Shown: positions 7,556 to 33,126 of the stretch, piece after piece
Position numbering within the stretch: the first letter of the stretch is position 1
Layout of the letters: every line of letters begins with the position of its first letter
Source of the DNA: an uncultured Ignavibacteria bacterium
GTDB lineage: Bacteria; Zixibacteria; MSB-5A5; SM1-73
Assembly (NCBI GenBank): GCA_964580215.1
Contig: CAZOJT010000013.1
Coordinates: 1,268 to 65,267, forward strand
DNA length: 64,000 nt
Direction of reading: 5' to 3'
Notes under the pieces: generated by a model
Database searches by the model: none
What the model was told of the DNA's origin: nothing
The model's input: the letters and a program-made list of their open reading frames with translations, nothing else
Program-made: the position numbers and the translations under genes

Positions 7556-7556
7556 A

Positions 7557-8810: not shown

Positions 8811-8860
8811 TTCTTTCAAAGGAAAGAAAGACAAAAGAAAAAAGTCAAACATAGAAAGGA

Positions 8861-9616: not shown

Positions 9617-10905
9617 TTTTACATAAACAAATATTTTTATACCTGGTAATTACATCCGCGCTGTTGCTTTTAAGATACTCAGCCAGCGCTCAGGATTATG
9701 ATTTTGAAATTCCCGAAGAAGAAACGGCAAAGATAGAGTTTAACGGCAACCTGGATGCAAAATGGGGTATTTTGCAAACAAATGAATCTTCCCCCTTTTA
9801 TGGATTGCAATTTTTCGGACAGGAAAGACCGGATGAGTACCTTTCCCAGTACCGTCTTGATTTCTATTTTAACGGTGATTACCGCTACAAACAAGTTGGT
9901 TTCACTTTGCGAACTTTCGCACAATACATAAAAGAAGAACCGATTGACCTGTCATTTTTTGAATTGTTTGGCAGTTTAAATCTTTCACCAAGGTTGACAG
10001 GGGGAATTGGCAAGCGCCGTTATAACTGGGGCAAAGGCTACGCATTTAATCCGGTCGGTTATGTGAATGCCGAGAAAGACCCGGAGAACCCCGATCTCGC
10101 ACTGGCCGGTAAAAACTCGCTTTTTATTAACTACAATCGTAGTTTTTCTTCCGGCTGGATTCAGAACCTGTCTTTATCTACAATTGTACTTCCGCGGGAA
10201 GACGACATTCTGGATAAATACGCTGAACTCGATAAGACGTCCTTGGCTATTAAACTCTATTTGCTTTTGCGAAATATTGATCTGGATTTTATGGTATTCA
10301 CAGGGAAAAACCAACCGCAGCGCTACGGCATAGATTTTTCAACCAATCTGCAGGAAAATATCGAAGTGCATGGAGAAGTCAGTTACGCTAAGGATGAAGA
10401 TTTTAGTTTTATTCAAAATAATATGGTTCAAATGAGCAAAACAGACGGATTCTCCTATTTGCTTGGAATGCGCTATCTTACCAGTCTTAACATGACACTT
10501 ATTGCCGAGTATTATCACAACAATCGCGGATTGACTTCTTCAGAATACAAAGATTATCAGGGGTATCTCATAAACAGTTTAAACAGTGAAGATGCTGAAT
10601 TGATTGGTTTGGCTAAGTCGGTTATTACCACCACTTTCCGTTCAAAAAACATAATGCAGGATTATATCTATTTCAAAGCCAGTCTGCCGGAACCTTTTGA
10701 ATGGTTGTATTCTTCCGTTGCGGTTTTCACAATCTACAACGTCAATGATGGTAGTTTTCTTTTATCTCCGCAATTAGGTTACAAACCTTTTACCAATTCA
10801 GAAATCCTTCTGTGGCCAAGCATCTTTGTCGGAGATGACAATTCAGAGTACGGGAGCAGACAGTTTCAAAAGAAAGTTGAGATGTGGTTTCGTTTTTATT
10901 TTTAG
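9613..10905 (+). CDS. Putative outer-membrane beta-barrel protein of the exporter cassette
   Basis: Has a signal peptide, alternating amphipathic beta-strand composition and a C-terminal aromatic residue (…WFRFYF). Its start overlaps the upstream gene. Confidence 0.3.
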   Translation: MILHKQIFLYLVITSALLLLRYSASAQDYDFEIPEEETAKIEFNGNLDAKWGILQTNESSPFYGLQFFGQERPDEYLSQYRLDFYFNGDYRYKQVGFTLRTFAQYIKEEPIDLSFFELFGSLNLSPRLTGGIGKRRYNWGKGYAFNPVGYVNAEKDPENPDLALAGKNSLFINYNRSFSSGWIQNLSLSTIVLPREDDILDKYAELDKTSLAIKLYLLLRNIDLDFMVFTGKNQPQRYGIDFSTNLQENIEVHGEVSYAKDEDFSFIQNNMVQMSKTDGFSYLLGMRYLTSLNMTLIAEYYHNNRGLTSSEYKDYQGYLINSLNSEDAELIGLAKSVITTTFRSKNIMQDYIYFKASLPEPFEWLYSSVAVFTIYNVNDGSFLLSPQLGYKPFTNSEILLWPSIFVGDDNSEYGSRQFQKKVEMWFRFYF

Positions 10906-14922: not shown

Positions 14923-15624
14923 TTAAGAATTTTCGTGCGCAGATAATTGACTGTGTTTTGGTGTAACTACCATACCGAGAAATGCACTAAAAGGATTTTT
15001 TCGGAAAGAAAGTTTTCTATCCAACCATTGAAAGAATCTTATCCTCGAATAAGGAACAAAGTATACACCCTCCCATTGCACCGACTCAAGTACGCCGGAA
15101 TTCTTCAACAACCTTTTCAGCTTCCAGATATTGAAAAAATTTGCCCGGTTGTATATTGAAGGCTTGAACCATCCTTTTATTCTTCTGCTTACAGCCAGCA
15201 TAGACCAGCTATTCAGCACCCCTATAAAGATTTTTTCTCTGGTTACTCTTCGTACCTCCTGGAGGACTTTTACGGGATCTTCACAAAATCCCAGGGTAGT
15301 GATCAAGATGGTAATATCAAAAGCAGAGTCCTTTATGGGAAGCTGTTCCCCCTTTGCTAAGATCAGCTTGAAATTGCCTTTCCCCTTAGCCCTTTGCAAC
15401 ATGAAAACTGACGTATCCACCCCGATTGGATCTGAACCCAGAGTTTGAAAGAGCTTTAGATGATTTCCGGTTCCACAACCGATATCAAGGATTTTTTGAT
15501 GGTGCACCTCCCCTATTAACTTTACCATCAACCTTTCTTCTAATGAACTGGTATATCTTCCGAAGTCGGTTTCATACCACTTATCGTAGTTTTGCGCAAC
15601 CTTCTGGTCGAAATCTGTTTTCAT
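14923..15624 (-). CDS. Class I SAM-dependent methyltransferase
   Basis: Motif I ILDIGCGTGNH is present, consistent with the Methyltransf_11 fold. Confidence 0.6.
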   Translation of the reverse strand: MKTDFDQKVAQNYDKWYETDFGRYTSSLEERLMVKLIGEVHHQKILDIGCGTGNHLKLFQTLGSDPIGVDTSVFMLQRAKGKGNFKLILAKGEQLPIKDSAFDITILITTLGFCEDPVKVLQEVRRVTREKIFIGVLNSWSMLAVSRRIKGWFKPSIYNRANFFNIWKLKRLLKNSGVLESVQWEGVYFVPYSRIRFFQWLDRKLSFRKNPFSAFLGMVVTPKHSQLSAHENS

Positions 15625-18876: not shown

Positions 18877-20283
18877 ATGTTAGAGAATTTAATTCATGAA
18901 GAATGTGGTGTCTTTGGCATCTTTGGAGCAAAAAAGGCGGCTGAGCTAACCTATCTGGGACTTTATGCCCTACAGCATAGAGGACAGGAAGGAGCAGGGA
19001 TTGTTTCCTCCAACGGTGAGAGAATCTATCAGCATAGAGGTCTGGGGGAGGTAAATGAGGTCTTTTCCCAAAAGAATATCCTCAATGGATTAAAAGGACA
19101 TGTAGCCATCGGACATAATCGCTACTCCACCACCGGTGCCTCCTCTTTAGTCAATGTTCAGCCTCTTTCGATCACCTACAAGAAGGGGAAGTTAGCTTTA
19201 GCTCACAACGGAAACCTGACCAATTCTTACAGTTTGCGCACCTCCATGGAAAGGAACGGTTCCATCTTTCAAACCTCCAGTGATAGCGAGATAATTTTGC
19301 ACCTGGTGGCTCGCTCAAAGAAAGAGACCGTGGAGGAGATGATCCAGGACGCCCTTTTGAGGGTGAAGGGAGCGTTTTCTGTTGTCTTCAATACCGGTGA
19401 TTCCATTGTGGCCGCAAGAGATCCTCATGGATTTCGCCCTCTGGCTTTGGGCAAACTTAGAAACGCCTGGGTGGTGGCATCGGAAACCTGCGCATTCGAT
19501 ATAATTGGAGCAAAATACCAAAGGGATATCCAGCCGGGTGAGATTGCAGTAATCAATCAGAAAGGAATCAAGTCTTACTTTCCGTTCAAACCGGTCAGAC
19601 ATGCATTTTGCATTTTTGAATTCATCTACTTTGCCCGTCCGGACAGCATCATTTATAATGAGAATGTGGATAAAATCCGCAGAAGATTGGGCGGGCAACT
19701 GGCAAAAGAAAAGCCCGCAAAAGCCGACATTGTGATTTCGGTTCCCGATTCCTCTAACACCGCCACACTGGGATATTGTGAAGAATCCGGGATAAAGTAT
19801 GAGGTGGGTCTGATTCGCAATCATTACATCGGAAGAACCTTCATTGAGCCGGAGCAAACCATAAGAGATCTAGATGCGCGGATTAAGTTTAATCCGGTAA
19901 GAGGGGTTTTGAAGAATCAAAGGGTGGTGGTCGTGGACGATTCCATTGTCCGGGGGACCACCAGTAAAAAGCTCATCCATATGTTACGGAATGCCGGGGC
20001 AAAGGAAGTTCATTTCCGGGTAAGTTCACCCCCCATAATCTCCCCCTGCTTTTATGGGGTAGATATGCCCACCAAAGAGGAATTGGTCGCTTCGTCCAAA
20101 TCAGTGGAACAGATCAGAAAATATCTGAACGTAGATAGTCTGGGTTATCTTTCCCTGCCGGGGATGCTTTCTCTGCACTCTCTGAACGGAAGAGATTTCT
20201 GCGTAGCCTGCTTTTCCGGCAAATATCCCACCAAGATTGGAGATAACAGTGGAAAATATGTTTTAGAGACAAAACGTTGTTGA
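18877..20283 (+). CDS. purF: Amidophosphoribosyltransferase
   Basis: Shows N-terminal Cys CGVFGIFG (Ntn amidotransferase), a PRPP-binding VVVVDDSIVRGTT motif and C-terminal Fe-S cysteines. Confidence 0.9.
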   Translation: MLENLIHEECGVFGIFGAKKAAELTYLGLYALQHRGQEGAGIVSSNGERIYQHRGLGEVNEVFSQKNILNGLKGHVAIGHNRYSTTGASSLVNVQPLSITYKKGKLALAHNGNLTNSYSLRTSMERNGSIFQTSSDSEIILHLVARSKKETVEEMIQDALLRVKGAFSVVFNTGDSIVAARDPHGFRPLALGKLRNAWVVASETCAFDIIGAKYQRDIQPGEIAVINQKGIKSYFPFKPVRHAFCIFEFIYFARPDSIIYNENVDKIRRRLGGQLAKEKPAKADIVISVPDSSNTATLGYCEESGIKYEVGLIRNHYIGRTFIEPEQTIRDLDARIKFNPVRGVLKNQRVVVVDDSIVRGTTSKKLIHMLRNAGAKEVHFRVSSPPIISPCFYGVDMPTKEELVASSKSVEQIRKYLNVDSLGYLSLPGMLSLHSLNGRDFCVACFSGKYPTKIGDNSGKYVLETKRC

Positions 20284-20308
20284 CAATTGCCATCTTAGTT
20301 TAAATTAT
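20280..20308 (+). promoter_or_regulatory. Putative sigma70 promoter for the RM gene (TTGACA-17-AATTAT, second TTGACA downstream)
   Basis: Read directly in the AT-rich spacer between purF and the RM gene. TTGACA at 20280-20285 overlaps the purF stop codon. Confidence 0.3.
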
Positions 20309-20366
20309 ATTGACATATATTTAATATATATAAATTTACCTAAAACTGAAGCTAAGCAAAATAAAT

Positions 20367-23300
20367 ATGCCTCTCACCGAACCAGAATTCAATGCCAAAG
20401 TCGTAGGGCTGATGAATCAAATCATCAGAGAGAAAGGCTTGGGTTTTGAAGAAGCTCGCATGGGCACCAGCCTGAAGATGACTGATGAAACCACCAAGTT
20501 CCCGGATGGGGTCATCTGGAAGAACAAGTCTACCAAAAGAGCATCTCTCCTTTTTGAGATAAAAAATCCAAGCTGGGATGCCTCCAATATTAAATTGGTC
20601 GACCAAGCTGGCACGAAAGCTTACGAATTAGGTACAAAATATTTTGCGACTTGGAACATGAGAGATTTTATCCTCTGGGAAACTTTCCGCGAAGGAGTCC
20701 CCTTATATGACAGACATAAAGAATGGTACAAAAACATAATCCTCGTAAAAGATATAAGTCAAGTAGACAGAAAAGAGAACTGGGAGAAAATCAAGAAATT
20801 TTTAGATAAGTTCTTAGATGCTCTAAATCAGGATATATTTAGACGAAGGAGGGTGTTTGTTGGTCTTCCAATAGATCAATTCTTTATAAGAAAGCTAGAC
20901 GCCAATGTAGATATCAACACGCGGGTTTTTTCCATAGCTTTAAAGCAGAAATGTACAGAAGATAAGAATTACTATCGACAGCTATGCAAATGGATTTGGG
21001 ATCAAGGTTGGCATCCTGATCTAAAGAAAAAAGCACAGGATACAGATCATTTTCTGTATGAGAGAATCGCTCGTGTTGCCGCGTATACCTTAGCTAACAA
21101 GATTCTATTCTATAATGTTCTTCGCACAGAACACCAAGAACTTGAGCCTATCCAGACTGAAAGGATTAAAGAGAGTCCAGACCTAAACCAGATTCTAAAA
21201 AAGCATTTCCAAGACGTCTTAAGAATCAATTATGATACCATTTACAAGATAGATATTTTCGATGACCTGAGAGTGCCAGATAATTGTTTAGAGCAAATGA
21301 TTAGGTTTCTGGATGATTTTGACAAATACGATTTCAAAGGGGTTAATTATGAGATATTGGGGCAGGTTTATGAGGATTTGATCCCCGGAACTGAAAAGCA
21401 CGAGATGGGTCAATATTTCACGCCTCCTTCGACCGTGGATCTGATTAACAGCTTCTGCATTCAGAAGCCCAATGATGTGATTTTAGATTTGGGCTGTGGC
21501 GCTGGAACTTTTCTGGTCAGAGCCCACGCTCGATTAAAGTATCTGAAGAAGAAAAAGACTCATAGAGAACTTCTGGAACAACTTTGGGGCGTTGACAAGG
21601 CTTCTTTCCCCGCTCATTTAGCCCAAATCAATTTGGTCCTGCCAGGTTTGTCCAAGACGGAAAATTTTCCCTACATAGAAAATAAGGATGCTTTTGACAT
21701 CAAACCCCAAGAGACCTATTTTGAGGTCCCCTATCACCGGGGAATAAAGCATGAATATAAGAAGATTTCAATGAAAACAGCAAAAGTGAAAATCCCGGAC
21801 ATGGATGCAGTGGTTGGCAATCCTCCATATATCCGACAGGAGAAACTCGCAGAGGAAGATAAAGAGCACATAAGAAAAGCAGTGGAAAAAGATTGGGGAA
21901 ACTTTAGACTTACCAGCCAAACCGGTCTTTCTATAAGCAGGCAAGCAGACATCTACGTTTATTTCTTCATTCACGCTGCCAGATTTCTAAAGGAAGGTGG
22001 TCGTTTAGGATTCGTGACCTCCAATTCCTGGCTGGATGTCAGATACGGAGCAGGATTGCAAAAATTCTTTTTGGACAACTTCAAGATCATCGCTATCATT
22101 GAGAGCAAAGTAGAGAGGTCTTTTGCCAAAGCGGATATCAATACTGCCATCACCATTATCGAACGTTGTTCTGACAAGAGAAAGAGAGATAACAACACCG
22201 TCAAGTTTGTGGTCTTGAAGGAGAAAATGGACACCCTCATCCCCAAAGACGGAGATAGGGATAGATTTTTGGTTTGTGAAAAATTGATCTCCAAAATTAC
22301 CCGTAGCAGAAAACTATATGAAGATTCTCAAATCAGAGTGCTTCCTAAAAAGCAAAAAGAACTGTATCGAGAAGGAATTGAAGATAATGTCTATGTTGGG
22401 TCAAAATGGGGCGGAAAATATCTGAGAGCGCCGGATATTTTCTTCAAGATTCTGGAGAAAGGGGAAGACTTATTTGTCCCCTTGAAGGATGTAGCCGAGG
22501 TTAGAAGAGGCTTTACTACAGGAGCAAATGATTTCTTCTACTTGACGGAAGAGCAGATCAAAGCCCACATGATAGAGGATAAGTTTTTAGAACCAGTGAT
22601 GAGAACACCAAGAGAAAATGACTGCATTTTAATTGACCCACGTAATTTAAAATTCAAGGTTTTGCTGGTGCACAAGGACAAAAGAGAATTAAAAGGCACA
22701 AATGTATTGAAGTATATCTACTGGGGTGAACTAAAAGAATATGATCAAAGATCAACTTGTCGTTCAAGAGCGAGATGGTATAGTTTACCGGCACCTCGAA
22801 ATGCAAAGATTGCTTGGAGTATGATTCACGCCCACCGACATGTTGTCTTTTATAACAAGTTCGGTTGTCAACTAGATCACAATTTTTTTGAAATTTTACC
22901 AAAAAAGAAACGGTATACGACAATTTTTTTGGCCCAATTAGTGTCTACAATTTCTATGCTAACAAAAGAACTTTTTGGGCGCCAATATGGCGGTGGTAGC
23001 GGCCCAATTAAAACAGAGGGAATCGACATAGAAAAACTACTTGTAATACGCCCCGAGAAAATTCAAACCAAGATGAAACAAAAAATTAGACAAGCCTTTG
23101 ATGTCCTTACTCATCGTCCGATTCAAGTGGTATTTGAAGAGGTTAAGCAAAAAGATCGGCAACAATTGGACAACATCTTTTTTGATATTTTAGGCTTGAC
23201 TAAATACGAAAGACAGCAGGTCTATGACGCGGTTTGTGAATTAGTCAGGAATAGATTAGAGAAGGCTAAAACATTTGGAAAAAAGAACACGAACAAAAAA

Positions 23301-23732
23301 GAGGAGTTTAATCCTTCCTCTTATGCAGACCACATCTTAGAGGAAGTTTTCTTGGCGCAAGAAAAAAAGGAATTCCCAAAAGATTTCACAGAACCATCTT
23401 GGGAGACTTTCGCTATTCAACTGCCCAAGATCGAACCAAAAGGTAAATTAACCATCGAGGAATTCTTCGGGAAAGCAAGCTTAAGAATAGACGGTGAGAC
23501 GATCGATTGCCAAACTACACCAAAAGCAAATTTTGTGGAGTTAGCAATAGAAAAAGGCGTTAGAGATCAAGTTGCTGTTCCTGCGGATGACAAGAATTGC
23601 ATTAAGGCAATCAGAGGTTATTTGAATTACCGCAAGATTATCCAGGCACAGATCGAAGACACCATGAAAATGTTTAATTTGACCAAAAAGCAAACCAAAG
23701 CTGTTCTTTTGGAAATGGAGAACAGATTCTAA
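20367..23732 (+). CDS. Single-chain Type IIG/IIL restriction-modification enzyme (MmeI/Eco57I-like): N-terminal PD-(D/E)xK nuclease fused to an N6-adenine DNA methyltransferase and a C-terminal specificity region
   Basis: The first ~110 aa carry a PD…EIK arrangement (FPDGVIW…LLFEIKNP). The central region has motif I DLGCGAGTFLV and motif IV VVGNPPYIRQ (NPPY, gamma-class amino-MTase). A long C-terminal region of ~550 aa fits a target-recognition domain. The gene has lower GC than its flanks. Confidence 0.6.
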   Translation: MPLTEPEFNAKVVGLMNQIIREKGLGFEEARMGTSLKMTDETTKFPDGVIWKNKSTKRASLLFEIKNPSWDASNIKLVDQAGTKAYELGTKYFATWNMRDFILWETFREGVPLYDRHKEWYKNIILVKDISQVDRKENWEKIKKFLDKFLDALNQDIFRRRRVFVGLPIDQFFIRKLDANVDINTRVFSIALKQKCTEDKNYYRQLCKWIWDQGWHPDLKKKAQDTDHFLYERIARVAAYTLANKILFYNVLRTEHQELEPIQTERIKESPDLNQILKKHFQDVLRINYDTIYKIDIFDDLRVPDNCLEQMIRFLDDFDKYDFKGVNYEILGQVYEDLIPGTEKHEMGQYFTPPSTVDLINSFCIQKPNDVILDLGCGAGTFLVRAHARLKYLKKKKTHRELLEQLWGVDKASFPAHLAQINLVLPGLSKTENFPYIENKDAFDIKPQETYFEVPYHRGIKHEYKKISMKTAKVKIPDMDAVVGNPPYIRQEKLAEEDKEHIRKAVEKDWGNFRLTSQTGLSISRQADIYVYFFIHAARFLKEGGRLGFVTSNSWLDVRYGAGLQKFFLDNFKIIAIIESKVERSFAKADINTAITIIERCSDKRKRDNNTVKFVVLKEKMDTLIPKDGDRDRFLVCEKLISKITRSRKLYEDSQIRVLPKKQKELYREGIEDNVYVGSKWGGKYLRAPDIFFKILEKGEDLFVPLKDVAEVRRGFTTGANDFFYLTEEQIKAHMIEDKFLEPVMRTPRENDCILIDPRNLKFKVLLVHKDKRELKGTNVLKYIYWGELKEYDQRSTCRSRARWYSLPAPRNAKIAWSMIHAHRHVVFYNKFGCQLDHNFFEILPKKKRYTTIFLAQLVSTISMLTKELFGRQYGGGSGPIKTEGIDIEKLLVIRPEKIQTKMKQKIRQAFDVLTHRPIQVVFEEVKQKDRQQLDNIFFDILGLTKYERQQVYDAVCELVRNRLEKAKTFGKKNTNKKEEFNPSSYADHILEEVFLAQEKKEFPKDFTEPSWETFAIQLPKIEPKGKLTIEEFFGKASLRIDGETIDCQTTPKANFVELAIEKGVRDQVAVPADDKNCIKAIRGYLNYRKIIQAQIEDTMKMFNLTKKQTKAVLLEMENRF

Positions 23733-23818
23733 CCCAAATCGTCCGACACTGGGCCGGACGCTATATTTTCCTTATTGTCTTCACCTAATTCATACCCTTT
23801 TTTCATAGGATAGAAGCT

Positions 23819-24301
23819 TTGAACTCCAAAATGTTTTCCTTCATTCAAGCAAGACAGACCCAGCGTTTTGTAAAATTCGGACTGGTCGGAACCTGGGGAT
23901 TTCTGGTTAATATGTTTTTCTTGTGGTTTCTGACCGAGAAAGTAGGGGTTTATTATCTTTTCTCCAGCATCGTGGCAATTGAGATATCGCTTTTAAATAA
24001 CTACGTGCTGAACGATCTGTGGACCTGGCATGATCGGGGAAAAGAGGGAAAAAAAGAATACTTCAAAAGAATGCTTCAGTACCATGTTTCTGCCAGCGCC
24101 GCCACGATGACGAATCTCGTGGTTTTATGGATTTTGACTGAGCTTTTCGACATATATTATTTGGCTTCCAACATCTTTGGTATTTTGTGCGGTACCCTGT
24201 TAAACTTCTTTATCAATGACCGCTGGACCTTCAAACACAAAAAGGAATTGTCAGCGGAATCTTTAGAAATGCCAAATGGCGGGCATGCCCGACAAGATTA
24301 G
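23819..24301 (+). CDS. GtrA-family membrane protein (polyprenyl-phosphate-sugar flippase-like)
   Basis: 160 aa with four TM helices and an N-terminus (FVKFGLVGTWGFLVN) typical of GtrA. Confidence 0.55.
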   Translation: MNSKMFSFIQARQTQRFVKFGLVGTWGFLVNMFFLWFLTEKVGVYYLFSSIVAIEISLLNNYVLNDLWTWHDRGKEGKKEYFKRMLQYHVSASAATMTNLVVLWILTELFDIYYLASNIFGILCGTLLNFFINDRWTFKHKKELSAESLEMPNGGHARQD

Positions 24302-24315
24302 CGTTTAGGCGGGAT

Positions 24316-24356
24316 ATGCGTATGCTCGTATGAGTGCATACGCACATTCATACGAA
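24316..24356. repeat. Nested palindromic repeat (family gcgtatgc-tcgtatgagt-gcatacgc…cattcatacgaa)
   Basis: The sequence atgcgtatgctcgtatgagtgcatacgcacattcatacgaa has at least 12 related copies in the window. Confidence 0.8.
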
Positions 24357-24470
24357 AATTCCCGTCTCTATGGGAGGATTATCTTCTCACCCATAGGGCA
24401 GGGCATTCAGCCCTGCCACAAGATTCTCGGTCGTTCATTAATTACGGGTTAGGCTAAAACCTAACACTCC

Positions 24471-25697
24471 ATGCTTTCTGTTTTCTTAATGCGAATATCT
24501 GAACTGAAGAAAAAAGACTATTTCAGGATAGCCTTATATGTGATTCTTATAATCGTCATGCTCGGCTTTTTTCGGAATACCCTGCGAAAAGGTATGAGCG
24601 ACTTCAAGGTGGTTCATCGTGCCGCCACAAGAGTCCTAAATCAGGAAAACCTTTATAATTTTGATGATGGTCATTATCTTTATAAATATTCGCCCTCTTT
24701 CGCTGTCATGGTCGCTCCGCTGGGGCTTCTTCCTCTCTTTCCAGCCCAGATAGTATGGCTTGCTGGAATGTGCATTTGTCTGTTCTTTATCATGAAGTGG
24801 AGCAAAAAGATGATTTTGGGGGATAAATCACCTCCCCCCTATTTATACCTTCTGACCTTGCTTTTCACCTCGAAATTCATAGTGCGGGAGTTTTGGCTGG
24901 GACAGACAGACTTTTTGATGCTTCTTTTCATCTTCCTGTTTATTTTGTCCACTGATCGAGGAAAAGAATTAAAAGCGGGGGGCTTTCTTGCCTTATCGGT
25001 CATGATTAAACCTACCCCTCTGATCCTTGTGCCATACCTTTTGTATAGGAAAAAATTCAAACTGATCGGCTATCTCGCCATAACGTGTGCTGTCTTTCTT
25101 TTTGTTCCTTTATTCGTTTATGGAATTCCCGACAGTCTGAATCTGCTTTCTGGTTGGAAAACCGTCTTGTCGGCTTCATCTCCCCCACTTTTGGCTGCGG
25201 ATGTTAATCAGTCTTTGTTCGGCTTCTTTTATCGCTTTCTGACACCCGCTCCTTTTCAGGTCAACATCCTGAATCTGAATTATACCGTGGTAAATTTACT
25301 AATATATGCCACGGCAGTAGGTTTGTTTCTATTTCTTCTTTTCTTAAACCAAAGATTGAAATTTGTGGAAAACAGTTTCGTGCATCGGCGAGAATGTATA
25401 GAATACTCACTTCTTCTAATTTTTATGACGCTTTTTTCACCTCTGGGTTGGTTTCAAAATTATTCCTCATCCATTCTGGCTTACATGCTTCTTCTATATT
25501 ATGTTTTAAAGACCGGACTTGAAAATCGTTTTGTCTTTATACTACTGATGCTATCCTTCCTTCTGGTAGATGCTATCAATTTCGAGACTGTGGGACGAAA
25601 GATTAACGATCTCTCTTTGTATTTCTCCTTCATCACTTTCGGGATCTTCCTGGTGATAATTTGCCTTTCTAAATTAAGGCTATCCAAAATTGCTTAA
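24471..25697 (+). CDS. Polytopic membrane protein, possible GT-C-type glycosyltransferase (DUF2029/GT87-like)
   Basis: 408 aa with about 10-12 TM helices and short loops. It lies in a glycosylation gene context. No catalytic motif was verified. Confidence 0.3.
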   Translation: MLSVFLMRISELKKKDYFRIALYVILIIVMLGFFRNTLRKGMSDFKVVHRAATRVLNQENLYNFDDGHYLYKYSPSFAVMVAPLGLLPLFPAQIVWLAGMCICLFFIMKWSKKMILGDKSPPPYLYLLTLLFTSKFIVREFWLGQTDFLMLLFIFLFILSTDRGKELKAGGFLALSVMIKPTPLILVPYLLYRKKFKLIGYLAITCAVFLFVPLFVYGIPDSLNLLSGWKTVLSASSPPLLAADVNQSLFGFFYRFLTPAPFQVNILNLNYTVVNLLIYATAVGLFLFLLFLNQRLKFVENSFVHRRECIEYSLLLIFMTLFSPLGWFQNYSSSILAYMLLLYYVLKTGLENRFVFILLMLSFLLVDAINFETVGRKINDLSLYFSFITFGIFLVIICLSKLRLSKIA

Positions 25698-25863
25698 GAC
25701 CTATTTGAGTATACATTTATGAATCCCCTGGCTGGTAGGAACCATAGTGTTCATATCAGCCCAAAAGCAAACCAGGTTTTGTTTTTCTTTACAGAAGACT
25801 TACCTCTCTGCCGATAATAAAACCAGTTGCCAGTCAATAGTCATAAGTCACCAGTAATTCGTC

Positions 25864-27285
25864 ATGCGTTATCAGTCATTCGTGATTGAATTAGGGGGGA
25901 ATATGGACAAGGCTAAGATCTTGGTGGTTGACGATGAGGAGTCGATGTGCAAGTTCATGGAGATCATGCTGAAAAAGGAGGGCTATCAGGTCATCACCAG
26001 CCAGGATGCCTCCACCGCATTAGAGCGAGTCAAAAGTGAAACCTATGATCTGGTGATTGCCGATCTGATGATGCCGAAGATGAGCGGACTGGAGCTTCTC
26101 TCCCAGGCCAAATCCATCAATCCGGATCTTGACTTTATCGTGATGACCGCATTTGCCTCCGTGGACTCCGCCATTGAAGCATTAAAAAAAGGTGCTTTTG
26201 ACTATATAACCAAGCCCTTCCGGGTGGATGAGATAAAGATCGCGGTAAGGAAATCTTTAGAACAAAAAAAGATCGTTCGGGAAAATATTAAACTGAAGAA
26301 GGAACTTCAGACCAAATCCGATTTCGATTCTTTTATCGGTAATAGTCTGGAAATAACCAAGCTGAAAAAGATGTCGGAGAGGATCGCCAGATCCGATTCG
26401 ACCGTTTTGATCGAAGGTGAATCGGGCACCGGCAAGGAGCTGATCGCCAGAGCCATCCATTACCACAGCCCCAGATCGGACAAACCCTTCGTCACCATAA
26501 ACTGTGCCGCCCTTCCGGAAAACCTTCTGGAAAGTGAGTTGTTTGGACATGTGAAAGGATCATTCACCGGAGCCATCAAGGACAAGGAGGGACTGTTCAA
26601 AGTGGCGGACGGTGGAACGTTCTTTTTAGACGAGGTGGGAATGACCTCGCCCGCAATTCAGGCAAAACTATTGAGAGTTCTGGAGGAGAAAGAGATGACC
26701 CCGGTGGGAGGCACCGCTCCCATCAAAGTGGACGTGCGCTTAATCGCCGCCACCAATGCCGATTTAGAGCAAGAGGTGAAATCAGGAAACTTCAGGGCAG
26801 ATCTTTATTATCGCCTGCATGTTATACCCATAAGGATTCCTCCTCTGCGCCAAAGAAAGGACGACATCAAGCTTCTTTCCGCCTATTTTGTCAGAAAATA
26901 CTGTCAGAAGATGCAAATAGAGGAAAAGAACATCACCGATGAGGCTATGAACCGATTGCTCTCCAACAAATGGCCCGGCAATGTGAGAGAGCTGGAAAAC
27001 GCCCTCGAACACGCGGTTTTGCTGTCCAAAAGTAATCAGATAACCACAGAAGACCTTCCTCAAAAGATAAAAGAGGAGAAGGAGATTGACTTGGTCACAG
27101 AAGCGCAGCCAACTGCTCCTGCACTGGAAATCATAGAAAAAGCTTATATCTTCTGGGTGTTGAATCAGACCGGTTGGCAGAAAAGCAAAGCCTCTTCAGT
27201 TCTGGGGATAGACTCATCCACCTTATATAGAAAGATAGAGAAGTATAAATTAAAATCACCCGCCTCCTCTGTTGGTGAACTCTAA
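25864..27285 (+). CDS. Sigma54-dependent NtrC-family response regulator (receiver-AAA+-Fis HTH)
   Basis: Receiver domain (ILVVDDEE…D), an AAA+ domain with GESGTGKELIARAIH and GSFTGA (GAFTGA variant), and a C-terminal HTH. The true start is likely the ATG at 25903 (MDKAKILVVDD), which has an upstream GGGGGG RBS. Confidence 0.85.
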   Translation: MRYQSFVIELGGNMDKAKILVVDDEESMCKFMEIMLKKEGYQVITSQDASTALERVKSETYDLVIADLMMPKMSGLELLSQAKSINPDLDFIVMTAFASVDSAIEALKKGAFDYITKPFRVDEIKIAVRKSLEQKKIVRENIKLKKELQTKSDFDSFIGNSLEITKLKKMSERIARSDSTVLIEGESGTGKELIARAIHYHSPRSDKPFVTINCAALPENLLESELFGHVKGSFTGAIKDKEGLFKVADGGTFFLDEVGMTSPAIQAKLLRVLEEKEMTPVGGTAPIKVDVRLIAATNADLEQEVKSGNFRADLYYRLHVIPIRIPPLRQRKDDIKLLSAYFVRKYCQKMQIEEKNITDEAMNRLLSNKWPGNVRELENALEHAVLLSKSNQITTEDLPQKIKEEKEIDLVTEAQPTAPALEIIEKAYIFWVLNQTGWQKSKASSVLGIDSSTLYRKIEKYKLKSPASSVGEL

Positions 27286-27310
27286 CAAAAGAAGCTTCAA
27301 AAGAAAAGAT

Positions 27311-27470
27311 ATTTTGTCTTTGTAGTTGCCCAATTCATTGGGCTTTATGAGGCTCGATCCTTCGACAGGCTCAGGATGCCATAAATCGAGCGACTACAGT
27401 TTCGTAGTTGCCCGATTCATTGGGCTTTATGTAGCTCGATAAATCGAGCAACTACAATTTTTATGCGCTA
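27311..27470. repeat. Two tandem copies of the repeat family gtagttgcc-(c/t)gattcattgggctttatg…gcaactaca
   Basis: Related copies occur at 37990-38105 and 44795-44865. They have inverted termini attgtagttgc…gcaactacaat. Confidence 0.7.
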
Positions 27471-27484
27471 TTGATATTTGCCCG

Positions 27485-29452
27485 ATGGGAAAAAATTCAA
27501 ACCAGACAAAATACTCCGAGCAAAGGAAGAAGAGACTATTTACGACTGAAAATGCGCTTTGTGCTTCCGTGTTCCTCTTCTTCTTTGCAGTTTACACCAT
27601 AACATTGTGTCCCACCGTTTTCTGGTGGGACTCAGGGGAGTTGATTGCCAACATCGCGGTCTTGGGAATACCCCATCGCCCCAGCTTTCCCATTTACGTG
27701 CTTTTAGGTAAACTTTTCTCCTTTCTCCCCTTCTGGAGTTTTGCCTTAAAGGTGAATTTTCTCTCCGGCCTCTTTGCTTCTTTTTCACTGGCAATCTTTT
27801 GTAAGATTTTTCTCAAGAGTGCTAACCTGTTTTTCCCGGAAATGGCTAAAAAGAGGGGATTGGTTCTGGCTTCAGGTTTCTTTTTTCTTTTAGTTTTTGG
27901 GTTTACCTATTCGTTCTGGATTCAGGCGGTAAGGGCAGAAGTTTATTCTTTGAATGTTCTTTTCTTTTCCCTGCTTTTGTTTTCAAGCATTTTATACCTT
28001 AAGGATGGAAAGCTGAAATATATCTATCTTTTTTTCTTCCTTTTAGGATTGGGTCTGGGAAATCATCATCTTAGTTTATTATCATCCACTCCCGCTTTGT
28101 TCTTCCTTCTCTTGTGTTCATCCGCTCACAATGAATCCGTCATTCGTCATTCGTCATTCGTCATAAATCTCAAAAGATCTCTTTTATGCACTTTACTTTT
28201 CTTATTCGGTTTAAGCATCTATCTTTATCTTCCCATCCGCTCCCTATCCCAACCAACCTTAGCTTGGGGTGAGGTCAAATCCATTTCCTCGTCTGCAAAT
28301 TCCATCTTTGCCCTCGACACCATTAAGAATCTGAATCTGGAGTTTTTGTCAGATATTACTACCACGATGTCACAGATACTTTTACTTATCTCTGATCAAC
28401 TCACTCTCTTATGTTTCACCATCAGCCTTCTGGGGCTTTTTCTACTTTTCAGGCATAACCGCAAGCTTTTGACTTTTCTACTATTGTTGATAGGAGGCAA
28501 CTGTGCGGTGGTGATATTTATGACCACGGAGTTTATATCCACCAATCCCGATCTACATGGCTATTTAATTTTCTCCATCTTCGCTCTGGCTTTCTCTTAT
28601 GGTATAGGTGTCTTCTTTATATTAAATAATATTCGTCATTCGTCATGGTTCGACTTTGCTCACCACAAGTCCGCCATCCGTCATCTTTTTTTGATCGTTT
28701 TTGGAGCGATTTCCCTCATTCCTATGTTTAAACACTATCCGGAGGCGAATCTATCCAACAATCGGATTGCCCATAATTACGGCTTGAGTGTTATCTCCGA
28801 TCTGGATTCTAACTCGGTCGTTTTCGCGGACAACGTCAATTTGAATTTCATCTTGAGGGAACTTCGCTATGCAGAAGGACTAAGAAAAGATGTAACCGTT
28901 CTTGATCGTGGTCTTTTGAGCTTTAACTGGTATGTGACACAAAAAAGAAATGAGCAAAAAGTCCTCTTCTCAGGTATTCCGGGGAGCTTAATTGGTGAGC
29001 CTCTGTTTGAAGCGCTTCTAAAAAGATGCCAAGATTCAGAGAAGCCCACATATATCGAATTCACTGAAAGGGATTCAAATCTGGTGAACCATCTCATTCC
29101 CAGAGGATATGTTTTTAAAATAAGCAAGACACGAATTGGTCAACTTTCGGAAAGGGTTCTACTATCTCAGAAAAGATGGGAACATGATGGTCCCTTCGAT
29201 CCACAGGATGAGGTGTTTCAAAGAGACTGGGATACTAAAAGGGTGTTTGCTCTTTCTTTTTATCGATTAGGGCTTTTCTATGAATGGAAGGGGATGACCT
29301 CCTTTGCTCTGGAAAAATTCGCACAGGTCAGAAAGATCGACCCGGGAAATAAGGAACTCATCCTGAAGATCGAGCATTTGGAGACGATAAAGAGATTATC
29401 GGAGAGTTCTGAGGCGGGTTCTTTTCCATCTCCAGGAAAACCTCTTAGATGA
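27485..29452 (+). CDS. DUF2723/PMT-like (TMEM260-type) GT-C glycosyltransferase with a C-terminal TPR domain, copy 1
   Basis: The first loop carries WWDSGE (the DxE/DSGE acceptor motif of PMT/ArnT-like GT-C enzymes). About 11 TM helices follow. A large C-terminal soluble region has TPR-like repeats. There is a paralog at 31111-33126. Confidence 0.55.
   Translation: MGKNSNQTKYSEQRKKRLFTTENALCASVFLFFFAVYTITLCPTVFWWDSGELIANIAVLGIPHRPSFPIYVLLGKLFSFLPFWSFALKVNFLSGLFASFSLAIFCKIFLKSANLFFPEMAKKRGLVLASGFFFLLVFGFTYSFWIQAVRAEVYSLNVLFFSLLLFSSILYLKDGKLKYIYLFFFLLGLGLGNHHLSLLSSTPALFFLLLCSSAHNESVIRHSSFVINLKRSLLCTLLFLFGLSIYLYLPIRSLSQPTLAWGEVKSISSSANSIFALDTIKNLNLEFLSDITTTMSQILLLISDQLTLLCFTISLLGLFLLFRHNRKLLTFLLLLIGGNCAVVIFMTTEFISTNPDLHGYLIFSIFALAFSYGIGVFFILNNIRHSSWFDFAHHKSAIRHLFLIVFGAISLIPMFKHYPEANLSNNRIAHNYGLSVISDLDSNSVVFADNVNLNFILRELRYAEGLRKDVTVLDRGLLSFNWYVTQKRNEQKVLFSGIPGSLIGEPLFEALLKRCQDSEKPTYIEFTERDSNLVNHLIPRGYVFKISKTRIGQLSERVLLSQKRWEHDGPFDPQDEVFQRDWDTKRVFALSFYRLGLFYEWKGMTSFALEKFAQVRKIDPGNKELILKIEHLETIKRLSESSEAGSFPSPGKPLR
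28137..28164 (+). repeat. Heptanucleotide tandem repeat (cgtcatt)x4 inside the DUF2723 CDS
   Basis: The sequence ccgtcattcgtcattcgtcattcgtcat was read directly. A second 2-copy tract (attcgtcattcgtcat) lies at 28631-28646. Confidence 0.8.
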
Positions 29453-29629
29453 ACTCTTTCTTGAGTCGTAGAATTAAGCAAAAAAGGGGGGGGGGACGGT
29501 GATTGCATTTTGCAAGGATTCAGGTAAAAACCTCGATACACAAACATCTGCTCAAAAACCGATCCAACTCTTTCCTCCTGTCCGAAAACACCTTAGTGAT
29601 TATAGTTCAGGATTGCATGATTTTTGTAG

Positions 29630-30094
29630 TTGTTAAACTTAAAGAGACCATTTATGAGATCAAAAAAGCATTGGCGGAATAAAGGCTTTACTTTGATCGA
29701 GCTGATGATCGTGGTAGTCATCATCGCCATCCTGGCGGCGATGGCTATTCCCCGTTTCATGCGTACTTCGGTGAAAACCAAGCAGACCGAGGCAAGACTA
29801 ATCTTGAAGCAGATTTATACCATGGAAAGAGCTTACCGGCAGGAAAAGGACAGCTACTACCCGGGTGACGGAAGCACCATTGTTGCTCAACCTGGAGGAG
29901 CCTTCGCTGCTTTATATGTGGAGATCATGACTCCGGCTTATTATAGTTACTCAATTTCCGGAGACGCCTCATCCTTTTCAGCCACCGCTGGGTCCAAAAG
30001 CGCCACCGGGCTGGATGGTGACCCTACTTTAGATGTCTGGACCATAGACCAAACCGGTAATCTGACCTGCGTCACTGATGACTCTGAAGACTGA
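29630..30094 (+). CDS. Type IV pilin / pseudopilin (prepilin-type N-terminal cleavage/methylation domain), copy 1
   Basis: Contains …NKGFTLIELMIVVVIIAILAAMAIPRF, which is the G/FTLIE class III signal plus a hydrophobic helix. The true start is probably MRSKKHWRNKG at ~29654. Confidence 0.75.
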   Translation: MLNLKRPFMRSKKHWRNKGFTLIELMIVVVIIAILAAMAIPRFMRTSVKTKQTEARLILKQIYTMERAYRQEKDSYYPGDGSTIVAQPGGAFAALYVEIMTPAYYSYSISGDASSFSATAGSKSATGLDGDPTLDVWTIDQTGNLTCVTDDSED

Positions 30095-30246
30095 ACAGGA
30101 GGAAACCAAACACAGCGTTTTGCAAAAAGACAAGCAAAATACTCTAAGAAAAGGTGTTGAATAGAGGAGCATCAAGTTTTAAACAGTTAAATTATCCTAT
30201 TTTAAGATAAGAACTTAGAAGAGGAAAAACACAGGTAAATAACAAA

Positions 30247-30262
30247 TGGCACAGCTTTTGCT
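30247..30262 (+). promoter_or_regulatory. Sigma54 (RpoN) promoter, TGGCAC-N5-TTGCT
   Basis: tggcacagcttttgct is a perfect match to the -24/-12 consensus (GG and GC spaced 10 nt). It lies ~80 bp upstream of the second pilin start. Confidence 0.65.
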
Positions 30263-30339
30263 TTAAAGTTTATGTGAAGATGAAAAGTGCTAAGAAAGTG
30301 AACAGGAAAAACTTAAACTAATGAAGGGGGTGAGAGAAG

Positions 30340-30771
30340 ATGTTGAGCAAATTTCACAGAAGTCAGAAGGGTTTCACCTTGATCGAGTTGATGATCGTGG
30401 TGGTCATCATCGGAATTTTGGCCGCACTGGCCATCCCACGATTCATGCGAGCGACCACCAAGTCCAAGCAGTCTGAGGCAAAGCAGGTCTTGAAGCAGAT
30501 CTACGCCATGGAGAGAGCTTATCGTCAGGAGTATAATGCCTACTGGGGTAACGGTATCAAAGCCTCAGCCGTCGCCGCCCAACAGGATAACTTCGGCCGC
30601 ATCGGTGTGGACATCATGTCCACCGCTCGTTACACTTACACCATCGTTGCGGCTGCGAACACCTTTACCGTAACCGCCACCTCAGGCATCCTGGACGATG
30701 ATGCCAAGGTGGATACCTGGACCATCAACGACGCAGGTCTTCTGTCCTGCACCAGCGATGACGCGCTCTAA
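30340..30771 (+). CDS. Type IV pilin (PilA-like), copy 2
   Basis: MLSKFHRSQKGFTLIELMIVVVIIGILAALAIPRF is the prepilin leader plus N-methyl-Phe helix. A variable C-terminal domain ends with a Cys pair (…CTSDDAL). Confidence 0.75.
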   Translation: MLSKFHRSQKGFTLIELMIVVVIIGILAALAIPRFMRATTKSKQSEAKQVLKQIYAMERAYRQEYNAYWGNGIKASAVAAQQDNFGRIGVDIMSTARYTYTIVAAANTFTVTATSGILDDDAKVDTWTINDAGLLSCTSDDAL

Positions 30772-30796
30772 GGGTTTAACTTCTTGTCTGACTAAA

Positions 30797-30833
30797 GGGG
30801 ACTCAAGGGTTTGAGTCCCCTTTTTTGTTTTTT
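30797..30833 (+). terminator. Rho-independent terminator after the pilin genes
   Basis: ggggactcaagggtttgagtcccc forms a stem, followed by tttttt gtttttt. Confidence 0.75.
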
Positions 30834-31063
30834 AGTAGGTCGGGTTTTCCGCCAAAGGCGAATCCACCTCCGGTGGAAAAGCAATTGTAGGTCCGAACCC
30901 CCCCGCCAACGGCGGGGGTTTCGGACAACAAAAGATTAATAAACAACCGAGAAAATCCGCAGGGATGAACCCTGCGCTACGCAAGCTAATGCACTCAATT
31001 CTCTCGCGTAGCCAAGCCTTTATGGCTTGGATGAACAATTTTTTCGCCGGAACAGCAAAGAGA

Positions 31064-31100
31064 TGTCGGATAGTCCCGCCTTTGGCGGGACATATCCGAC
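31064..31100. repeat. Extended hairpin containing the cccgcc-ttt-ggcggg core (widespread repeat family)
   Basis: tcggatagtcccgcctttggcgggacatatccga. The same core recurs at 6652-6668, 53121-53139, 38045-38063, 17327-17345, 18707-18722, 33212-33230, 50241-50258, 55445-55462, 55563-55580, 44083-44101 and 30893-30911. Confidence 0.8.
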
Positions 31101-31110
31101 CTACTAACCT

Positions 31111-33126
31111 ATGAGGTTAGAGATTAAATGTTTCTGCCCTTTTTCCGACCATAATAATATGCAATGGGTCGATGGATCCACCACAAGAAAGAATACAATC
31201 ATCGGTGGGGCAATTTTCATTGTAACATTCGGTATGTACATTTTCACCATGTGCCCCACCATTTACTGGGAGGACTCCGCTGCTTTTTGTGCTGTTCATT
31301 CCCTGTTGGGGATTCCTCATTCTCCAGGTTTTCCCATATATGTCCTTTGGGGGAGGCTTCTTACCATGGTCTCCATTTCCAATTCTGCCTTCTGCTCCAA
31401 CCTTATGTCCGCCTTCTGGGGCAGTCTAACACTGGCACTCCTATATCTTCTTATCATCGAAATCTTTGATCAGATGAAGTCCAGCCGTTCGCTTTTAAGA
31501 TTGTCCACCATAACCAGCATATTATTCTTGGCATTCTCCACCTCCTTTTGGCTTCAAGCCATAAGAGCAGAGGTTTATACTTTGAATATTTTTTCCACCG
31601 TTCTTCTGATTTTTCTTATGATAAAATGGTGGCACTTCAAGGAATCTCATCTCGGCTTCAGAATCTTGCTCTTGTTTTCTTTTATTCTGGGGCTATCTTT
31701 GACCAACCATCCTCTTCTGATCATCACCCTACTACCTGCCTTTCTGTTATTTTTCTTTTCCGCCCAGACGGGCGGTCGTCTAATCGCTGATTCTGAGTTT
31801 CTTTTAAACCCAAAGAAACTGTTTTTGTTGGCCATATTTCTTATGCTGGGAATATCCGTTTATCTTTATCTACCCATCCGATCAAATCTTTCACCTCTTA
31901 TCAACTGGGGAAAACCGGACTCCTGGTCAAACCTTCTCTGTTATCTGTTCCGAACCTCCCAGACAAGTGTTACTGCTTCTGATCCAGGTTTTCCCTATTT
32001 GAATCGCTTGTGGTTCAATCTCTCCTTCCCGGTGGCTCAATTCGGTCTGCCTTTTTTCTGGTTAGGTGTGGTGGGAGCAATTTCTTTGTTTAAATCCTGC
32101 CGGGGGATTTTCTTTCTCACTTTTTTTATCTTCACCCTGAACATGTTAACCGCCAGTTGGGCTGTCGATTTCTCTTTGAGAAACTATGATCTTTTGGGTT
32201 ATCTTTTGCCCTCGCTTTCCGTGTTTACCATCTGGTTCGCTTTAGGATTAAAGACAGTTTTAAGTTGGATGTTTAAAGAAGTTAGAATCCTTCACACAAA
32301 TCCCATTGGCCAAACCAATAAAGTTGTGAGCTATATGGTTGTATATGCCCTTTTTGGACTATTCCTCTTGCTGCCGTCCTTTCAGGTGTGGAGAAACCTC
32401 GACCAGTGCAATAAGAAATCCCAAGCTTGGGCTTACAGTTATGCGCACCAGATTCTAAGCTCTGTTAAAAAAGACGCCATGATCCTGGTGGGCGATGATA
32501 ACACTTTAACCTCCCTGTGGTATTTGAATCTGTCTTGTGGCATAAGACCGGATGTCAAGATATTAAGTATATCTGCCCTAACGCAGAAAAGTTATAGAGA
32601 ACAGATAAGCCAGCAATATAGAGACATAAAACTTCCAAAGCTTGGACAAAAAGATTTTGGGGAAATCGCATATGAGGTTTCCCAAATAAATGCTGACAAT
32701 TTCCCGGTCTATTCCACTCACTTCTCCAAACATCCCCTTTTTGTCCAGTATCTACGTCCGGCTGGATATTTGTTCGAGTTTTGTCCAAAAGGGGTAATTT
32801 TGACCGATAAAGATATTAAAGAACAGAAAGATTTCCTTAAAAGAAATTTGAAGCACGAAAACTTTGATATCTTAACCCGGGAGCATTTCGGGAATCTTAT
32901 TTTTAACCTGGGTGCATTTTATGACCTGAAAGGTGGTTCATCTTCATCCATAGAATATTTTCTGTGGGCTCTGGATGTGGACTCAACCAATCCAAGGATC
33001 TACTTTCAGTTGGGGAAAGCGTTTCTGAAAAACGGGGACAAAACTAAAGCTCTAGATTTCTTTCAGGCAGGTTTGGAGTTGGATCCATATAATCTGGAGG
33101 CAAGAAGGCTTTTAGAAAAAACTTAA
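31111..33126 (+). CDS. DUF2723/PMT-like GT-C glycosyltransferase with a C-terminal TPR domain, copy 2
   Basis: Paralog of 27485-29452 with the same architecture (IYWEDSAAF motif in the first loop, polytopic membrane region, C-terminal TPR). The start is probably the internal ATG at ~31159. Confidence 0.55.
   Translation: MRLEIKCFCPFSDHNNMQWVDGSTTRKNTIIGGAIFIVTFGMYIFTMCPTIYWEDSAAFCAVHSLLGIPHSPGFPIYVLWGRLLTMVSISNSAFCSNLMSAFWGSLTLALLYLLIIEIFDQMKSSRSLLRLSTITSILFLAFSTSFWLQAIRAEVYTLNIFSTVLLIFLMIKWWHFKESHLGFRILLLFSFILGLSLTNHPLLIITLLPAFLLFFFSAQTGGRLIADSEFLLNPKKLFLLAIFLMLGISVYLYLPIRSNLSPLINWGKPDSWSNLLCYLFRTSQTSVTASDPGFPYLNRLWFNLSFPVAQFGLPFFWLGVVGAISLFKSCRGIFFLTFFIFTLNMLTASWAVDFSLRNYDLLGYLLPSLSVFTIWFALGLKTVLSWMFKEVRILHTNPIGQTNKVVSYMVVYALFGLFLLLPSFQVWRNLDQCNKKSQAWAYSYAHQILSSVKKDAMILVGDDNTLTSLWYLNLSCGIRPDVKILSISALTQKSYREQISQQYRDIKLPKLGQKDFGEIAYEVSQINADNFPVYSTHFSKHPLFVQYLRPAGYLFEFCPKGVILTDKDIKEQKDFLKRNLKHENFDILTREHFGNLIFNLGAFYDLKGGSSSSIEYFLWALDVDSTNPRIYFQLGKAFLKNGDKTKALDFFQAGLELDPYNLEARRLLEKT

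Follow-up and report, generated by a model that had tools for sequence, protein, structure and literature searches.

A DNA stretch of 64,000 nucleotides (hereafter the window) from an uncultured Ignavibacteria bacterium, assigned to Zixibacteria in the GTDB lineage (contig CAZOJT010000013.1, assembly GCA_964580215.1), was analyzed with the focus on one gene, here called gene X. Gene X is a single open reading frame (ORF) at 20367..23732 of the forward strand, stop codon included, which starts with ATG and encodes 1121 aa. The gene order is purF, an 83-nt AT-rich spacer, gene X and gtrA, and the identities of PurF and GtrA were confirmed in Pfam. Protein X was assigned, from N- to C-terminus, a predicted nuclease, a DNA methyltransferase (MTase), a target-recognition domain (TRD) and an additional C-terminal module. 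It is probably a solitary single-chain Type IIG-style restriction-modification (RM) enzyme with Type IIL genetic organisation.

Domain organisation of protein X

The first 125 residues were assigned as a PD-(D/E)xK endonuclease domain with the motif P46-D47 ... E64-I-K66. D47 and E64 were invariant among 24 diverse homologs of 35-88% identity, and K66 was kept in at least 90% of the sequences when a second N-terminal alignment of wider diversity was used. Searches of PDB with the N-terminus, by sequence and by profile, gave chance-level matches only. In Pfam, the first 325 aa of 24 family members showed consistent weak PD-(D/E)xK matches, i.e., HSDR_N_2 (9 of the 24, best E 8e-6), VRR_NUC and YhcG_C. 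The AlphaFold2 (AF2) model of residues 1-325 had a predicted local distance difference test score (pLDDT) of 89.7 and a predicted template-modelling score (pTM) of 0.85. It contained a canonical nuclease core, and residues 136-320 were entirely helical. In the Foldseek search against PDB, the Type IIG enzyme BpuSI ranked first (E 1.5e-5, probability 1.00, 320 columns) and the Type IIL enzyme DrdV second (E 2.4e-4, 319 columns), and both alignments extended over the nuclease and the connector behind it. Further matches were TT1808, HsdR fragments, NucC, Can2 and other PD-(D/E)xK nucleases. A helical connector has been described for BpuSI (PMC3185434). By the model, the N-terminus of X is a PD-(D/E)xK nuclease, of predicted activity, with a BpuSI-type helical connector.

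The connector is followed by a gamma-class N6-adenine MTase core, of which the S-adenosylmethionine (SAM) motif I and the catalytic NPPY were invariant among the 24 homologs. The Pfam domains were N6_Mtase (5e-24, residues 328-622), Eco57I (5e-24, residues 404-584) and, weakly, MmeI_Mtase (6e-10, 39.2 bits, residues 372-555). PDB sequence and profile matches of X were confined to the MTase core and the recognition domain. The matches included 7lni, a 578-aa adenine-specific methyltransferase (E 1.8e-19 in the profile search), and, over the MTase core, Type I HsdM, MmeI, DrdV and the BREX methyltransferases (BrxX/PglX).

The C-terminal part of the MTase and the TRD belong to the M.Eco57I_C, M.BseCI and TaqI type. 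The Pfam domain M_Eco57I_C spanned residues 706-900, and M.BseCI (7qw5) was matched by the single sequence at residues 477-856 (E 1.4e-12) and by the A1 profile at profile positions 482-914 (E 2.3e-18). Some homologs also matched TaqI_C (PF12950). This is the most basic segment of X, i.e., pI 10.1 and net charge +12. We infer that one TRD serves both the nuclease and the MTase activities.

An earlier note on this DNA, made from the letters alone, had described a 1121-aa ORF with the motifs PD…EIK, DLGCGAGTFL and NPPY and read it as a fused nuclease and gamma-class N6-adenine MTase. The ORF and the motifs are present, although the start given there, 20280, adds the AT-rich intergenic region, and the fusion agrees with Pfam, PADLOC, AF2, Foldseek and the invariant motifs. 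The note also took a C-terminal region of approximately 550 aa as a possible TRD. A TRD does exist there, but the region consists of several parts, i.e., the MTase end with the TRD (626-915), two helices (916-965), a linker (966-982) and a module (983-1121). The last of these bears out the suggestion that the long C-terminus could hold an additional domain absent from MmeI.

Table 1. Features of gene X and of the spacer upstream of it, in window coordinates
Feature	Residues	Position	Strand	Basis
purF-X intergenic region, AT-rich, promoter-like hexamers		20284..20366	+	consensus matches only
Candidate promoter, TTGACA-17-AATTAT		20280-20308	+	consensus match only
TATATTKAA tandem repeat, 9-10 nt unit, approximately 3 copies, AT-rich, between the two TTGACA boxes		20306-20333		repeat scan
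Second TTGACA box		~20311	+	consensus match only
PD-(D/E)xK endonuclease domain	1-125	20367..20741	+	conservation, Pfam, AF2, Foldseek
Candidate catalytic residue	D47	20505-20507	+	conservation
Candidate catalytic residue	E64	20556-20558	+	conservation
Candidate catalytic residue	K66	20562-20564	+	conservation
Helical connector between nuclease and MTase	126-325	20742..21341	+	AF2, Foldseek
Gamma-class N6-adenine DNA MTase core	326-625	21342..22241	+	Pfam, PDB, motifs
SAM motif I, D374-LGCGAGTFL-383	374-383	21486-21515	+	invariant, 24 homologs
Catalytic N485-PPY-488	485-488	21819-21830	+	invariant, 24 homologs
MTase C-terminal part and TRD, M.Eco57I_C / M.BseCI / TaqI type	626-915	22242..23111	+	Pfam, PDB
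Hypervariable recognition cassette	~780-920	22704..23126	+	identity profile, nucleotide breakpoints
Conserved helices and K-rich linker	916-965, 966-982	23112..23312	+	alignment, AF2
Orphan C-terminal module (139 aa)	983-1121	23313..23729	+	AF2, profile search

Class assignment

The REBASE-derived PADLOC profile REase_MTase_IIG (PDLC03606) was aligned to residues 35-950 of X with an E of 2.2e-60 (profile positions 43-916 of 935), and it stops at approximately residue 950. As in Type IIG enzymes, nuclease and MTase domains are placed on one polypeptide, and they share one target-recognition domain, which is M_Eco57I_C / BseCI-type with cassette-like variability. The genetic organisation is that of Type IIL. 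As the earlier note had stated, no DNA methyltransferase or specificity gene was found within approximately 10 kb of X in the window. The same was true of the Zixibacteria loci, and this absence refers to linked genes only. The sole other MTase of the window, at 14923..15624 on the minus strand, is of the Methyltransf_11/UbiE type. No S subunit or helicase was detected near X in the window or in Zixibacteria relatives, and no MTase gene recurred as a neighbour of X homologs across 64 loci.

The functional call of the earlier note, a single-protein RM enzyme of Type IIG/IIL, agrees with this prediction. The enzyme had also been called MmeI-like, but this does not hold at the family level. Only MmeI_Mtase matched, i.e., no other MmeI model (N-terminal, helical, TRD or C-terminal) was hit at E <= 1, and the PDB match to MmeI was limited to profile positions 301-435. 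Therefore, X was not considered a member of the MmeI family. Its TRD is of the Eco57I/BseCI/TaqI type, and its nuclease and linker are nearest to BpuSI.

RM.BpuSI (Type IIG, PDB 3S1S, PMC3185434) has its domains in the order found in X, with the PD-x(n)-ExK nuclease at the N-terminus, the helical connector, the gamma-class N6-adenine MTase with NPPY and the recognition domain at the C-terminus. Over residues 1-325 it ranks first among the structural matches, at approximately 15% sequence identity and a TM-score of 0.40, which is low because the domains are oriented differently. However, BpuSI is approximately 870 aa long and has no counterpart of the 983-1121 module, and it was cloned together with the genes of two separate methyltransferases, M1 and M2 (PMC3185434), whereas gene X stands alone. 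In BpuSI the TRD looks like a shortened Type I S subunit into which an extra domain is inserted; that of X is BseCI/TaqI/Eco57I_C-type. In the Type IIL enzymes MmeI and DrdV (PDB 5HR4, 7LO5; PMC2582602, PMC4833311), as in X, one gene encodes nuclease, MTase and specificity, the companion methylase is absent, and specificity shifts through TRD changes. The MmeI TRD is of another type, and the C-terminal domain of X is absent from MmeI. M.BseCI and M.TaqI have a similar recognition domain, but both are stand-alone enzymes without nuclease, connector and C-terminal module. Eco57I systems additionally contain M.Eco57I as an enzyme of its own.

REBASE-predicted Type IIG proteins of approximately 1040 aa, discussed together with HVO_A0006, have an N-terminal PD-(D/E)xK domain and a connector, and relatives of them in B. 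burgdorferi and H. pylori were experimentally characterised (PMC4389544). Their likeness to X is by description, and the X homologs listed include members of 1031-1039 aa. No Borrelia plasmid was among the 30 plasmid hits listed at E <= 1e-10, to which 17 unlisted records are to be added.

X could instead be a non-cleaving methyltransferase component of a multi-gene defence system, i.e., like BREX PglX, MADS MAD2 or Type I HsdM, with its partners encoded elsewhere. The PDB profile matches to BrxX/PglX and HsdM over the MTase core fit such a protein, as do the weak matches to MAD2 (74 bits in NCBIfam; PADLOC mad2 E 5e-31, MTase core) and PglX (30.7 bits), and in other phyla the homologs are preceded by a UPF0758_N partner gene. 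However, these scores are far under the curated cut-offs and cover the MTase core only. BREX_1_MTaseX has a cut-off of 500 and matched residues 469-614 only, the cut-off of MAD2 is 720, and the Type I HsdM, an M subunit of approximately 500 aa without nuclease, matched only the N-terminal half of the MTase at approximately 310-445. All three were rejected. No end-to-end alignment with PglX or HsdM was found, and the N-terminus models as a PD-(D/E)xK nuclease, which PglX, MAD2 and HsdM lack. On both counts the reading of the earlier note withstands the refuting condition that it had named. No brx, mad or hsd (hsdS/hsdR) genes were found near X in the window or in relatives. The neighbours in the window are purF, GtrA, GT87 and NtrC-like genes, and neither the window nor the Zixibacteria clade has the UPF0758_N partner. 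It is hardly credible that X belongs to such a system.

Recognition cassettes, distribution and residence of the locus

Compared with its close relatives, X showed 25-50% identity across residues ~780-920, whereas the flanks showed 80-95%. At least three TRD/cassette classes were found inside one clade with 76-87% backbone identity. Protein P0001 shares the cassette of the window (95%), yet it is more diverged at residues 61-160, and certain proteins of other phyla matched the cassette at 47-51% versus 37-40% for the backbone. At the nucleotide level, homology to L003 and L008 ends at aa 750/805 and resumes at 929/937. From these alignments, the cassettes may be read as swapped between alleles within a fixed purF-gtrA chromosomal slot. 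Exchange of this kind typically marks RM enzymes in which new specificities are selected for, and its discordance with the backbone is expected of a specificity module that selection diversifies. Phase variation of X was also considered and was rejected, as no homopolymer or simple sequence repeat tracts were found inside the gene.

Relatives of X were found in at least 565 species-representative genomes of many bacterial and archaeal phyla, including the Candidate Phyla Radiation (CPR), DPANN and Asgard. The distribution is patchy, and identities are mostly 33-43%. The family has clearly spread horizontally between phyla and domains. In viral contigs, only two distant MTase-only matches were detected. 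The plasmid relatives found, in haloarchaea and lactobacilli (21-28% identity), end at approximately residue 930-976 without the C-terminal module. A phage or plasmid vector of the X subfamily was thus rejected. A contig labelled uncultured Ignavibacteria (L010, CAYURP010000042.1) begins inside a 61%-identical gene of the Zixibacteria type, which suggests mis-binning or inter-phylum transfer.

The closest relatives of X all belong to Zixibacteria, with 57-88% identity over the full length. In four other Zixibacteria assemblies (L003, L005/L006, L008 and L012), the order purF, X, GtrA, (GT87), sigma54 regulator, TMEM260-like, pilin was conserved. Between the window and L003, the identity was 73% for X and 59% (GtrA) to 87% (purF) for the neighbours. 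In more distant Zixibacteria, X was placed at other housekeeping sites, again alone. L005 and L006 encode an identical X protein (P0014). GtrA was called only in L006 (11965-12429), but tblastn found it in L005 (13435-13872) too, so this is a gene-calling difference and no deletion.

No tRNA genes were found in the window and no mobility-type domains in ten scanned flanking ORFs, and the short promoter repeat was the only tandem repeat found. Because of the shared synteny, the neighbour-like divergence and the lack of tRNA genes and mobility domains, X was considered a resident locus, not a recent island. As judged from gene order and divergence, it appears to be long-resident in the Zixibacteria lineage.

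The earlier note had proposed horizontal acquisition, since the gene and its promoter region were markedly AT-richer than both flanks. The lower GC is real but modest, i.e., 0.397 for X against 0.464 for purF, 0.418 for gtrA and 0.399 for GT87, with z = -1.24 and the fourth lowest place among 39 window ORFs; the proposed acquisition conflicts with the shared order and with a divergence of X like that of its neighbours. Four consecutive ORFs at 6836-10905 have a GC of 0.39-0.40, equal to or below that of X, and a 1540-aa ORF at 58721-63343 has the highest GC of the window, 0.526. GC thus varies widely from gene to gene in this genome. The explanation of a recently acquired genomic island, in which horizontal arrival accounts for the low GC, is very unlikely. 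It is favoured by the GC of X, below that of purF and of the window mean, by the AT-rich upstream region, and by the spread of the family between phyla and domains together with the copy in the 'Ignavibacteria' metagenome-assembled genome (MAG). However, X falls within the identity range of its neighbours in the same gene order, and its z value is no outlier. Of the marks of a genomic island, absence in relatives, outlying composition and mobility genes, tRNA genes or repeats were not found; persistent AT-richness was. In all Zixibacteria relatives the GC of X was 0.35-0.42, against a local GC of 0.40-0.47 (L003, L005, L008, L012, L001 and L004), and the deficit was often stronger than in the window, e.g., the GC of third codon positions (GC3) in L005 was 0.376 for X and 0.626 for purF. 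Exchange of alleles or cassettes in a resident locus better explains this persistence than recent transfer. The AT-richness may stem from alleles drawn from a common pool or from selection for a high AT content.

Upstream of X, promoter-like elements were recognized in the spacer (Table 1), and the TATATTKAA repeat could be a promoter or regulatory element. No clear Shine-Dalgarno sequence was found ahead of the ATG. A GC-rich inverted repeat with an 8-bp stem (CGTCCGGC...GTCGGACG) lies at 23740-23760, 8 nt past the stop codon, and scored as terminator-like on the minus strand only.

Gene X shares its strand with purF and with the downstream glycosylation and pilin genes. These are placed at 23819-33126, i.e., GtrA, a GT87 glycosyltransferase, a sigma54-dependent (NtrC-like) response regulator, two TMEM260-like O-mannosyltransferase-type proteins and an N_methyl (type IV pilin-like) protein. 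The cluster, a candidate pilin or surface glycosylation locus, is syntenic across Zixibacteria.

C-terminal module, partner gene and proposed mechanism

Behind the TRD, two helices at residues 916-965 carry the motif DRxxLDxIxFxILGLTxxExxxVYxAV. E925, L934, D935, L944, E948 and R963 were invariant there among the 24 homologs. They are followed by a K-rich flexible linker, KTFGKKNTNKKEEFN, where the AF2 pLDDT falls to 65-68, and by the module of residues 983-1121. In the AF2 model the module is a small alpha/beta fold of four strands, a helix, a strand and two long helices (pLDDT 88.6). PDB sequence and profile searches with the C-terminus gave nothing above chance, and Pfam gave no consistent family over the C-terminal region of 30 members. 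Foldseek with the C-terminal model gave no match at E <= 0.001, i.e., the best E was 0.3 in PDB and 0.05 in BFVD (viral structures), and PADLOC gave no meaningful match to fused or split modules.

A profile search with the module recovered 651 representative clusters, restricted to the X family, and the module was at the extreme C-terminus in all 150 of the 150 hits listed. The host proteins were approximately 1100-1200 aa long or shorter ones of 83-728 aa. Among 87 fetched loci, 84 encoded the module. In seven it was a separate ORF that directly follows a shorter enzyme gene. Four of the split ORFs, of approximately 125-140 aa, follow a clean gap of 9-81 nt (L038:9045-9428, L048:9047-9415, L073:8985-9392 and L076:9033-9452), and in L042, L080 and L086 the module overlaps the main frame, so that a frameshift or an error of assembly could lie behind these three cases. 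The split point in other genomes corresponds to the K-rich linker. No polar residue of the module was invariant, and F1003, P1020, G1036, C1048, A1054, P1072 and K1108 were conserved. The module is acidic to neutral, with a pI of 5.6 in the window and a family median of 6.3, versus the strongly basic TRD. It is an autonomous and probably non-catalytic unit. With low confidence, it may mediate protein-protein contacts, either for oligomerisation in cleavage or for licensing and control of the nuclease.

In other phyla, 35 of 64 loci carried a same-strand gene of approximately 100 aa ahead of the X homolog, mostly 17-90 nt away. Its product matched Pfam UPF0758_N, the RadC N-terminal helix-hairpin-helix, with E down to 5e-27, and the JAB domain was usually absent. 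Examples are L017:5616-5954, L025:5640-5954, L031:5603-5956 and L022:5592-5915, and a full-length RadC was found at one locus (L019:5041-5778, the same as L007:7086-7823). In the window and the Zixibacteria-clade loci, tblastn found nothing of this gene below E 0.27. PADLOC gave no model and no meaningful match for the RadC-N-like proteins, and no relevant paper was found on RadC/UPF0758 together with Type IIG.

The main rival to the RM reading is a domesticated epigenetic N6-adenine methylase, which would mark DNA for gene regulation, replication or repair with its nuclease silent, autoinhibited or repurposed, and without restriction of phages. It is unlikely, though less so than the other two alternatives. 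A housekeeping slot kept in five Zixibacteria assemblies, with X diverging like its neighbours, is in favour of such a role. The lack of tRNA genes in the window and of mobility-type domains in the ten scanned flanking ORFs, the near absence of the family from viral contigs, and the common strand with purF and the glycosylation-pilin genes agree with it as well. However, a working nuclease is suggested by its catalytic residues, which show little or no variation among bacterial and archaeal members. That the recognition cassette is replaced again and again fits an arms race more readily than a regulatory motif that stays fixed, and the patchy distribution across phyla suits a mobile defence gene.

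Several points weigh against an RM enzyme as read here. It is atypical of RM genes to stay for long at a housekeeping locus, and this could point to a partly domesticated role. A few family members have no K66, e.g., EIE or EIW is found instead of EIK. The role given to the C-terminal module is drawn from negative searches and from charge and conservation patterns only. The members found of the subfamily come nearly all from uncultivated organisms, and no biochemical, methylome or other experimental results were found for any of them.

As a Type IIG-style RM enzyme, X would work by analogy to BpuSI, MmeI and DrdV. The recognition domain would bind a short specific sequence, and the SAM-bound MTase would flip out and methylate an adenine in this site on the host DNA. 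The nuclease, tethered by the helical connector, would cut unmethylated, i.e., foreign, DNA at a fixed distance on one side, and SAM would be the cofactor. A single chain carries one nuclease active site, so that a double-strand break would require the cooperation of at least two X molecules. Specificity would be diversified through recombinational replacement of the ~780-920 cassette, in place between purF and gtrA. The acidic-to-neutral C-terminal module may aid oligomerisation for cleavage or license the nuclease, although this step is of low confidence.

A further reading, tentative and on balance doubtful, is that the X subfamily is an undescribed multi-part variant of Type IIG/IIL. It would comprise the core enzyme and a dedicated non-catalytic, novel-fold module of approximately 135 aa, fused in X and encoded by a separate downstream gene in some genomes, and in many other phyla also the small helix-hairpin-helix RadC-N protein encoded upstream. 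Licensing or assembly of the nuclease would fall to these accessory parts, e.g., via oligomerisation for double-strand cleavage or via sensing of the DNA state. The Zixibacteria locus would then be resident, with in-place cassette exchange.

Annotations usually call proteins of the X type 'N-6 DNA methylase' or else 'type I restriction enzyme M protein', and these labels can be corrected. Low GC alone was also misleading as a sign of recent transfer for X. Engineering of new cleavage and methylation specificities draws mainly on one natural scaffold, the single-chain RM enzymes with swappable recognition domains, e.g., those of the MmeI family. The Zixibacteria alleles, with at least three recognition cassettes on backbones of 76-87% identity, are a natural design for decoding and re-engineering of specificity. 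The X subfamily is set apart by its orphan, separable C-terminal module and, in loci outside Zixibacteria, by the RadC-N-like partner. The module and the recurrent partner hint at control or assembly steps that, in the libraries searched, are undescribed for Type IIG/IIL enzymes.

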